64,000 nt of DNA from Escherichia phage EP_H11. The notes below the pieces were generated by a model. It was not told the DNA's origin and did no database searches. It saw nothing but the letters and a program-made list of their open reading frames with translations. A program made the translations under genes and the position numbers. Shown in pieces: positions 18,833 through 19,361 of this stretch (its first letter is position 1; each line of letters begins with the position of its first letter). The stretch is from the sequence record OP688485; one strand, given 5' to 3'.

Positions 18833-19361
18833 TAGCTGAGTTCTATTAAGGCACCTAACGGCCTAATAGTTGCTCTTCCGTAAAACAGATTCGATAGTCT
18901 GGGAAGAGCAGCTATATACTCTCATTAAGTAATGCGTATACATAGGGCACGATTAAGTTACGTCTCCGGCTATGGTTGCATTACGAATAGTTAGGTAGTG
19001 TCCCTATTCAGATTGTCCGGAACTGGATAGAGGATGAAGGTATTGTCGAAACCTTAGTGGGGACTGATGCGAACTACACTAAGGTTTATACCCTCTCAAC
19101 ACCTTTAGGGGCATCTACGTAGTATACCTTGCGTCACGCGTAGGGTGAGCGAGTTAAAGCCCAAAGTGGCTTTAGGGAGCGAATCCCAGGGGGAGGCTCG
19201 GGTGGGCAAGGTCAGACTCTCCGGAGGAGTTTAGTCTCGTGTACGCGGCGGCTGGCAGAGCCGCCGCTACACTCCAATTGGTTAAATTAGATAAGGGGCC
19301 GGTAGTTCCTACGTCCATTAGTTTAGGAGTTATTATTTGATTATGTTGAGGAACACTATTA
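18833..19361 (+). other. 530-bp ORF-free, hairpin-dense region (candidate ncRNA, origin or packaging/regulatory site)
   Basis: no ORF of 60 aa or more on either strand; several perfect 8-10 bp inverted repeats. Confidence 0.35.

Follow-up and report, generated by a model that had tools for sequence, protein, structure and literature searches.

A large structured RNA probably encoded in the early gene block of Escherichia phage EP_H11

The stretch of DNA analysed here, 64,000 nucleotides (nt) of Escherichia phage EP_H11 (record OP688485; hereafter the window, in whose numbering all positions are given), contains a single long gap in a tightly packed block of early genes, and this gap very probably harbours an RNA structure that is maintained by selection as a functional entity. 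We consider it likely, with some reservations set out below, that approximately 18849-19272 (possibly extending to 19312) on the plus strand encodes a large structured non-coding RNA (ncRNA) of about 430-470 nt. This RNA matches no catalogued RNA family and constitutes a new one. An earlier note, made from the letters of this DNA, had offered four candidate functions for the gap: a structured ncRNA, an origin of replication, a packaging site or a protein-binding regulatory hub. The first of these is now strongly supported, as 16 helices, including some that enclose 70-130 nt, are kept by compensatory substitutions among related phages.

The non-coding gap extends from 18833 to 19361 (529 base pairs; bp), between a gene for a 56-amino-acid (aa) protein, which stops at 18832, and a gene for a 77-aa protein, which begins at 19362. 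In the plus-strand gene block of 1-27624 the other gaps measure at most about 190 and 110 bp; the gap is therefore unique there, its coordinates are those given in the earlier note, and no intergenic spacer elsewhere in the 27-kb block is comparable to the RNA element. No second copy (paralogue) of the element was found in the 64-kb window. All six frames of 18833-19361 are stop-rich, in keeping with the earlier statement that neither strand holds an open reading frame (ORF) of 60 aa or more, except that a mechanical minus-strand ORF (TTG start, 92 aa, 19172-19450) extends 190 nt into the gap. This ORF is missing or truncated in four related loci (L003, L009, L015 and L017) and is thus not a gene. 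The homologous regions in these relatives are not coding either, so that the earlier note's own condition for refutation did not apply: runs of indels that separate them from the window are of 1, 2 or 4 nt, with one 3-nt run, and neither an ORF common to the window and the four relatives nor any residual protein similarity was found in the spacer. Thus, the single-base indels and stops rule out that the spacer is coding. The description of the region as hairpin-dense was also borne out, since the plus strand folds at -183.5 kcal/mol (z = -3.6) and none of 100 dinucleotide shuffles was as stable; for the minus strand the corresponding values were z = -4.0 and, again, none of 100.

Related loci were recovered by exact-protein look-ups, which returned 15 contigs from ENA and Logan assemblies (metagenomes), and the comparison set consists of 10 full-length spacers that differ from one another, along with partial copies. 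In EP_H11 the flanking proteins have exact counterparts, WBU87704.1 and WBU87705.1, and the sole close relative in INPHARED is Escherichia phage vB_EcoM_IME392 (IME392), with 97.6% identity over the locus. The majority of versions are 95-98% identical to the window, whereas two divergent versions, L015 and L017, have a spacer of about 72% identity. The flanking genes of L015 have diverged comparably: its spacer is 72% identical to that of the window, and the nucleotide identity of its genes for the 56-aa, 77-aa and 117-aa proteins is 69%, 79% and 68%, respectively. In L015 an additional gene is inserted farther upstream.

Compensatory change was counted in a plain MAFFT alignment (A6) of the 10 distinct sequences, in which a few helices are misregistered, so that the counts are conservative. 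In 122 pairs forming 16 helices, 95.1% of cells are paired and 25 pairs have changed on both sides, compared with 9.8±2.3 in 500 shuffles, none of which reached as high a number. Six slid controls, in which the 3' partner was moved by 1-3 columns, gave 3-5 both-side changes with 33-46% of cells paired. Compensatory pairs in excess of such controls are the generic mark of a structured ncRNA, and the picture is the same when helices Pa and Pc are left out of the count. Furthermore, when helices were registered by hand, 27 of 28 doubly changed pairs proved canonical (binomial P ~6e-11 against a null of 0.375). The ten versions also share invariant runs of 15, 9, 18, 19, 9, 22, 14 and 9 nt, far above the background identity of about 70%, and it therefore appears that sequence as well as shape has been selected. 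These findings leave little room for the idea that the spacer is a decayed gene remnant, or a collection of chance hairpins, with no function. The flanking genes are mosaic, 'moron'-like and common to unrelated phages, which marks the locus as recombinogenic; however, compensatory changes and invariant blocks of 14-22 nt on a background of about 70% identity show purifying selection on structure as well as sequence, no residual protein similarity is present, and we find this explanation scarcely credible.

The substitutions also indicate which strand is read. Pair columns with G-U number 14, as against 3 with A-C, and canonical cells make up 95.8% on the plus strand and 91.1% on the minus strand; among the G-U substitutions particular to the plus strand are A19050G in helix H3b and two C-to-U changes in the 3' strand of H3 in L015. 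The excess of G-U over A-C implies an RNA read from the plus strand, which is the sense of all surrounding genes. The same pairs bear on the possibility that the gap is a site in duplex or extruded DNA, be it a packaging (pac/cos) site, a protein-binding regulatory hub or a set of cruciforms. Such a site could account for the many inverted repeats and for the loop of the terminal hairpin T, which is found in both orientations, inversion being a DNA-level event. However, the long-range helices P5 (enclosing 73 nt) and H3 (103 nt) and the invariant P2 (130 nt) could not arise by extruding cruciforms locally, the G-U pairs are numerous and unevenly divided between the strands, and no iterons, direct-repeat arrays or repeated binding motifs are present apart from short words. 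As for packaging, the end of the linear IME392 record (MH719082.1, position 116460) corresponds to window position ~15120, some 3.7 kb upstream of the RNA rather than at it. Long-range compensatory helices together with G-U pairs are what one would expect of a folded single-stranded RNA and not of a double-stranded DNA site; neither the pac/cos nor the regulatory-hub proposal gained any support, and we regard a DNA site of any of these kinds as highly improbable.

The RNA appears to begin with a block, AGGCACCUAACGGCC (18849-18863), that is invariant in 10 of 10 versions and of which 18853-18859 (ACCUAAC) provides the 5' strand of P2 (18853-59/18990-96; 3' strand GUUAGGU). P2 is itself invariant, closes a three-way junction with hairpins H1 and H2, and was predicted independently in all five allele types; when these types were folded singly, domain A gave the same three-way junction in five of five. 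A competing RNAalifold pairing of the 5' block (CACC, GGCC) with GGUG/GGCU of the variable domain shows 1 consistent and 2 inconsistent changes, and was rejected in favour of P2. H1 (18866-18915) consists of a lower stem of 14 bp (18866-79/18902-15) and an upper stem of 6 bp (18886-91/18896-901), separated by a 6-nt asymmetric internal loop. Its sequence is remarkably free, with six distinct stem versions, 11 of 14 lower-stem pairs doubly changed and 97% of cells paired; for example, the lower stem reads AUAGUUGCUCUUCC/GGAAGAGCAGCUAU in the window, UAUCAAUAUUUACC/GGUAAGUAUUGGUA in L015 and AUCUAAACCUACC/GGUGGGUAAGGAU in L017. An invariant, single-stranded linker, CUCAUUAAG (18921-18929), leads to H2 (18929-18984), and the string AUUAAG within this linker recurs in the invariant apical loop of H2. 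The outer stem of H2 (18929-36/18977-84) carries 2 double changes and 1 wobble change in L015/L017 (GUAAUGCG/UGCAUUAC in the window and GCAGCG/CGUUGC in the other version), its inner stem is CAUAG/CUAUG (18941-45/18970-74), and its 18-nt apical segment GCACGAUUAAGUUACGUC (18947-64) does not vary. The flank of the inner stem (18941-18974) is G-G in window-type alleles and A-A in L015/L017, a purine-purine co-change that hints at a specific tertiary motif.

Domain B (18997-19116) is the most conserved part of the RNA, with invariant blocks of 19, 22 and 14 nt, and folds into a second three-way junction, of H3, H3a and H3b-d. H3 (18997-19004/19108-16) shows G-C to G-U changes, and H3a (19005-11/19023-29; 11-nt loop) a U-G to C-G change. 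The invariant H3c/d (19033-43/19088-97) carries H3b (19049-59/19077-87), in which four double compensatory changes, plus one of A-U to G-U, distinguish AAACCUUAGUG/CACUAAGGUUU of the window from AAGCUGUAGAG/CUCUACAGCUU of the other version. The loop of H3a contains a 6-nt palindrome, UCCGGA in window-type alleles and AGAUCU in L015/L017, at different loop positions. Symmetric kissing loops have been argued for in GOLLD and OLE from covariation of palindrome to palindrome (PMC12286853), and by analogy the switch in H3a may be taken as a weak sign of a kissing loop.

The variable domain (19126-19212) is an 87-nt, cloverleaf-shaped four-way junction of P5, Pa, Pb and Pc that evolves faster than the rest. 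P5 (19126-32/19206-12) exists in five sequence versions, every one fully paired: ACCUUGC/GCAAGGU in the window, and GGUUAGU/ACUAACC, AGGUUGCG/CGCAACCU, AGGUUGC/GCAACCU and ACCUUGCGUA/UGCGCAAGGU in others. A local hairpin picked by RNAalifold in its stead, ACCUUGCGU/GCGUAGGGU, is disrupted in L009, whereas P5 is fully compensated. Pa (core 19137-39/19149-51) has four versions; in Pb (19154-61/19168-75) one A-U pair becomes G-C in L003; and in Pc (19185-90/19197-202) one position takes A-C, G-C and A-U, an alternative register as GAGC/GCUC failing in L015 and L017. Dense patches of substitution that do not extend beyond 19126-19218 occur in L003 (3465-3560) and L009 (2764-2857), contigs that are otherwise more than 99% identical over the element, and L018 also carries an L009-type patch. 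The right edge of the L009 patch falls inside the next hairpin, P6, and leaves its 5' extension unpaired, as a recombination breakpoint would. That the four-way junction has been diversified or swapped between near-identical phages suggests that it is a specificity module.

Pc also bears on the proposal of a replication origin, which could take the form of a transcription-primed origin whose pre-primer resembles ColE1 RNA II or a T4 origin R-loop, the G-rich 19188-19205 forming a persistent hybrid with the template. An RNA-primed origin would likewise give RNA covariation, a G-rich run (CAGGGGGAGGCUCGGGUGGG) is present, and the size and multi-hairpin layout recall those of RNA II, a pre-primer of ~550 nt with a G-rich segment and an essential multi-hairpin fold. 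However, this run is part of hairpin Pc and differs from allele to allele. ColE1 RNA II, moreover, serves a plasmid origin with an antisense RNA I, and no antisense promoter, AT-rich region or origin signature was seen here: the GC content along the region is 0.39-0.58, neither an AT-rich unwinding element nor iterons are present (direct repeats are short two-copy words alone), the cumulative GC skew climbs smoothly with no inflection at the region, and no replication gene is adjacent. An origin is thus poorly supported, and we judge its RNA-primed form to be very unlikely.

The remaining hairpins follow in close succession. P6 (19214-19237) is built on CUCC-GGA-GGAG (19219-22/19226-29), with a C-G to A-U change in L015/L017 (AUCC/GGAU). 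It is extended, in window-type alleles alone, by AGACU/AGUCU (19214-18/19233-37), which is 72% paired across alleles. Group I introns have R and S elements that pair as helix P7, and both this AGACU...AGUCU and GGUCAGACU resemble such elements; the size of the RNA would also fit an ORF-less group I intron. However, the group I (RF00028) and group II models of Rfam are silent even at E <= 10, the element lies between two complete genes and not within one, its downstream gene differs in L017, and the P7-like helix is the least conserved of all and leaves no room for P3/P8 between its strands. A self-splicing intron, or any other mobile ribozyme, consequently seems a very poor fit.

Hairpin T (19239-19272), which probably marks the 3' boundary of the RNA, is 34 nt long and GC-rich, and reads GUGUA-C-GCGGCGGCU, a 5-nt loop and AGCCGCCGC-UACAC. 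It is followed by UCCAAUUGG and not by a U-tract, and a scan of 18000-20200 for intrinsic terminators returned none. Aligned by hand, the lower stem changes from GUGUA/UACAC to GAGUA/UACUC in L015/L017, where the upper stem is one bp shorter. Near-identical phages differ in the orientation of the loop (19254-19258) that the perfect 9-bp arms enclose: GGCAG of the window is the reverse complement of CTGCC (L004, L005, L007-L010, L013 and L019), and GGCGG (L014) that of CCGCC (L001, L003, L006, L012 and L020). These flips look like recurrent inversion at the DNA level, by template switching or a cruciform, and imply that selection does not act on the sequence of the loop. A reading of hairpin T as domain V of a group II intron, also of 34 nt, was discarded: its bulge is on the 5' and not the 3' side, there is no AGC/CGC triad, the sequence varies and Rfam is silent. 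Finally, P8 (19302-19312), tentatively the last conserved structural feature 5' of the ribosome-binding site of the next gene, is GUAG-UUC-CUAC in the window, GAGG-AAGU-CCUC in L015 and GAGG-AAAU-CCUC in L017.

With the helices in place, most of the inverted repeats listed in the earlier note can be assigned. Five of the six are real and lie within helices that have compensatory support: GCTCTTCC/GGAAGAGC belongs to H1, AACCTTAGTG/CACTAAGGTT to H3b, TAAAGCC/GGCTTTA to Pb and GCGGCGGCT/AGCCGCCGC to T, and the self-complementary CTCCGGAG is genuine, albeit better read as the CUCC-GGA-GGAG of P6. The exception is ATAGGGCAC/GTGTCCCTAT, which is imperfect and unsupported by the divergent alleles; a G-to-A change in L015 would leave an A-C mismatch, and its arms belong to H2b and H3.

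Covariance models of known families did not recognize this RNA. A search of the whole window with the 4227 models of Rfam 15 gave no match at the gathering thresholds; at E <= 10, region 18600-19600 matched mir-242 alone (15 bits, E = 9.8), which is noise, and the divergent alleles L015 and L017 gave no match at E <= 1. The earlier note had failed to construct a tRNA cloverleaf, and ARAGORN similarly found no tRNA or transfer-messenger RNA (tmRNA) gene in the 64-kb window or in five related loci. The four-way junction of 19126-19212 does have a tRNA-like 7-bp closing stem and, in window-type alleles, a T-arm-like CGAAUCCC. However, its arm and loop sizes are wrong, an 8-bp stem with a 6-nt loop occupies the place of the anticodon arm, and the context of a CCA end and discriminator is lacking; CGAAUCCC is not conserved in L015 or L017. 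Two further resemblances were set aside, namely domain IV of signal recognition particle RNA (GGUCAG...UCCGGAGGA), which is not conserved in L015, and a hammerhead-like CUGAUG...CGAA at the tip of H3b, which is not conserved.

The closest known kind is that of the large ornate RNAs of phages. Two of these, ROOL and GOLLD, are associated with phages and form cages, and their function is not known (PMC12286853). The RNA described here resembles them (RF03087 and RF01998) in being phage-encoded, in its length of hundreds of nt, in its many covarying helices, multi-way junctions and strongly conserved unpaired blocks, and in having no obvious partner protein. The palindrome switch in the loop of H3a likewise recalls the kissing-loop covariation of GOLLD and OLE (PMC12286853), except that the palindromes here are at differing loop positions. 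However, the ROOL and GOLLD covariance models do not match it, and it is about 450 nt long, compared with ~580 and >800. ROOL and GOLLD typically lie beside tRNA genes, of which there are none in the window or related loci, and they are found in Firmicutes or rumen prophages, whereas this RNA is from a group of lytic E. coli myoviruses with predicted hypermodified thymidine. It therefore fails every test of ROOL/GOLLD membership that was run. OLE, a ribonucleoprotein RNA of ~600 nt from Gram-positive extremophiles, is similarly large and multi-domain, with invariant stretches between covarying stems. However, OLE is a chromosomal gene product that is membrane-localised and has the partners OapA/B/C; no such genes are near the RNA here, and Rfam gave no match to OLE.

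Does this RNA act as a discrete molecule, or as a part of the messenger in which it is embedded? Several points weigh against the reading that we favour. First, no convincing promoter or intrinsic terminator of its own was found, and the RNA could be part of an mRNA. Second, a Foldseek search of the PDB with the AlphaFold2 model of the adjacent 56-aa protein gave no significant match, and hence no informative partner fold. Third, the covariation derives from about five allele types of one rare phage group, many of the cells changed on both sides are co-inherited by L015 and L017, and P2, H2b and H3c/d are invariant and so beyond the reach of covariation. Finally, P6b is not conserved; the base of H3 and a small hairpin, P4x, are mutually exclusive, P4x being clear in L017 alone; and the registers used in the hand comparison for H1a, for P5 in L009 and for hairpin T were chosen by the analyst.

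The lack of an own promoter or terminator would suit a cis-acting mRNA element, that is, a structured spacer for processing by RNase III/E, for protection of the flanking cistrons from exonucleases or for translation of the next gene. The RNA follows immediately on the stop codon of the 56-aa gene and its end is ~50-90 nt 5' of the next start codon, and GUUCCU (19304-09) of window-type alleles can pair with the Shine-Dalgarno sequence AGGAAC (19350-55) of the 77-aa gene. H1, with its variable sequence, conserved shape and internal loop, is RNase III-like. In the T7 early RNase III hairpins (R0.3, R0.5, R1.1 etc.), which are also intergenic and within an early polycistronic transcript, two stems similarly flank an asymmetric internal loop and shape is kept where sequence is not. 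However, a T7-type site is ~20 bp of irregular double-stranded RNA in a single hairpin of ~60 nt, whereas the ~450 nt, three junction domains and invariant blocks of up to 22 nt found here far exceed known processing or stability hairpins. Furthermore, L015 and L017 have lost the segment that could mask the Shine-Dalgarno sequence, the 27-kb block has no comparable spacer, and the downstream gene is replaceable. The replacement is seen in L017 (Logan ERR15695956_769, 2148-3373), a mosaic in which the 117-aa gene and the RNA resemble those of L015, the 56-aa gene between them resembles that of the window (96.5%), and an unrelated gene for a 62-aa hydrophobic protein stands downstream of the RNA in place of the 77-aa gene. 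As the RNA has been kept with another downstream gene, the spacer appears to move as a unit of its own, always directly 3' of the 56-aa gene. In L003 (ERZ13616891 NODE_11, a 113-kb contig) a single-base deletion at window position 19429 frameshifts the 77-aa gene, and no gene is called. The 77-aa gene is thus dispensable in at least one natural genome and, being replaced in one locus and frameshifted in another, is not an obligatory partner of the RNA. Judged from the sequences compared here, we incline, by a little, to a discrete trans-acting ncRNA, and a cis-acting element seems to us rather unlikely.

How might a discrete RNA arise in the absence of its own signals? Since no convincing promoter or terminator was found, we infer that it would be co-transcribed with the surrounding early genes in a polycistronic transcript, and probably released or stabilised by processing. 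The nearest promoter-like consensus matches are near 15.4 and 15.8 kb. Two strong terminator-like hairpins with U-tracts lie on the plus strand at 9565-9584 (AGGGAGAC-UUCG-GUCUCCCU) and 21677-21698 (UAGCGCUC-UUUA-GGGAGCGCUA); early transcription units may stop at these hairpins, and the one to which the RNA belongs may do so at the second, which is the nearest match of its kind to the RNA. H1, with 14 + 6 bp around an asymmetric internal loop, its shape kept and its sequence free, is a putative substrate for RNase III-type cleavage, and hairpin T would block 3' exonucleases and so protect the 3' end; together they make a processed, stable RNA of ~430-470 nt plausible. Such an RNA could then act in trans while the host is taken over or its defences are countered, either by serving as a scaffold for proteins or by assembling from RNA alone. 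Its size, three junction domains and invariant loops would favour a role of this kind over that of a simple spacer in an mRNA. More speculatively, it may represent an ornate class of phage RNA that is new and has no relation to ROOL, GOLLD or OLE, an RNA-only or RNA-protein machine in the takeover or counter-defence of a hypermodified-thymidine coliphage, perhaps self-associating through the palindromic loop of H3a and with 19126-19212 as its specificity module; we put this forward as a possibility and no more than a tentative one.

Large RNAs with no assigned function are among the most persistent puzzles of RNA biology. To our knowledge, few bacterial or phage RNAs of >400 nt have elaborate conserved folds: ribosomal RNAs, RNase P RNA, tmRNA, group I/II introns, OLE, ROOL, GOLLD, raiA and HEARO. 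A large RNA that has no structural relation to ROOL or GOLLD, and whose gene lies in an early block of phages that infect E. coli, would be amenable to direct genetic and structural tests. Were it indeed a new ornate class, routine genetics of both phage and host could for the first time be applied to a large ornate RNA, since EP_H11 and IME392 exist as isolates that infect E. coli. Strong evidence for structure and a tractable host count in favour of the finding; against this, members of the family are known so far from a single rare group of phages. It also illustrates that RNAs of this kind can go unnoticed in groups of phages that sequence catalogues barely cover.

EP_H11 (111.4 kb) and IME392 have been grouped with phages that have SP-15/YerA41-type DNA polymerases, and their group carries thymidine hypermodification genes (PMC12686479; bioRxiv 10.1101/2025.03.26.645540). 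The window also codes for a contractile-tail sheath, an NAD-dependent ligase, a dUTPase, a dCTP deaminase, a NADAR-domain protein and a glycosyltransferase-like protein. Databases contain extremely few members of this group. A protein search of IMG/VR with the flanking proteins found no relatives, tblastn with concatenated early proteins found no syntenic relative besides IME392, and protein homologue searches gave three clusters for the 119-aa protein and one each for the 56-aa and LysM proteins. With the element itself, blastn against INPHARED phages, complete E. coli genomes and PLSDB plasmids found IME392 alone, and exact and degenerate pattern scans with conserved blocks of the RNA found nothing in IMG/VR (five blocks), JGI metagenomes or GTDB genomes. 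A second matching place in the IME392 record is most likely a self-match of hairpin T on the opposite strand, because the 77-aa gene is present once in that record. This near-absence of the group from catalogues is probably due to poor sequencing of hypermodified DNA. Large published screens of viral intergenic regions reportedly used IMG/VR-type data, and the RNA is likely to be absent from the resulting catalogues, as the five scanned blocks have no match in the IMG/VR copy. The IME392 record is 116.5 kb long, compared with 111.4 kb for EP_H11, which may reflect terminal repeats or a different start point. It has just 85 features annotated in 116 kb, with small early genes largely unannotated, and in the corresponding part (MH719082.1, 111966-112966; L001 3495-4495) the 56-aa gene, the RNA and the 77-aa gene are all unannotated.

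The genes around the RNA include NADAR-domain, exonuclease-like and glycosyltransferase-like genes. The 56-aa gene (18662-18832, plus strand), which is directly 5' of the RNA in every allele, has its ATG at 18662 and a ribosome-binding site GGAGGA, and overlaps the stop of the preceding gene within ATGTTTAA. Its protein matches PHROG 7747/15108 end to end and is modelled by AlphaFold2 as beta-beta-alpha-beta (predicted local distance difference test 78.8); its other relatives, at 44-46%, are in T4-like Citrobacter phages alone. Pfam gave sub-threshold matches alone for six small neighbouring proteins. The 77-aa gene (19362-19595, plus strand), which is 3' of the RNA in most alleles, encodes a protein 85-87% identical, end to end, to one of Seuratvirus siphophages (GottfriedDienst, WildeMaa and phiG7). 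There its gene lies between a gene for a small hypothetical protein and that for a DNA polymerase beta-subunit, a short distance downstream of 7-deazaguanine (DpdA) genes, and the upstream spacer is absent. With relatives of the 77-aa and 56-aa genes in unrelated phage families, the early block appears to be a patchwork of exchanged genes. Just 5' of the 77-aa start codon (19331-19361), window-type alleles have a 25-nt insertion relative to L015/L017. It creates an 11-codon upstream ORF, from AUG 19343 to UGA 19378, that overlaps the start codon of the 77-aa gene, and a second Shine-Dalgarno sequence, GAGGAA, at 19348-53.

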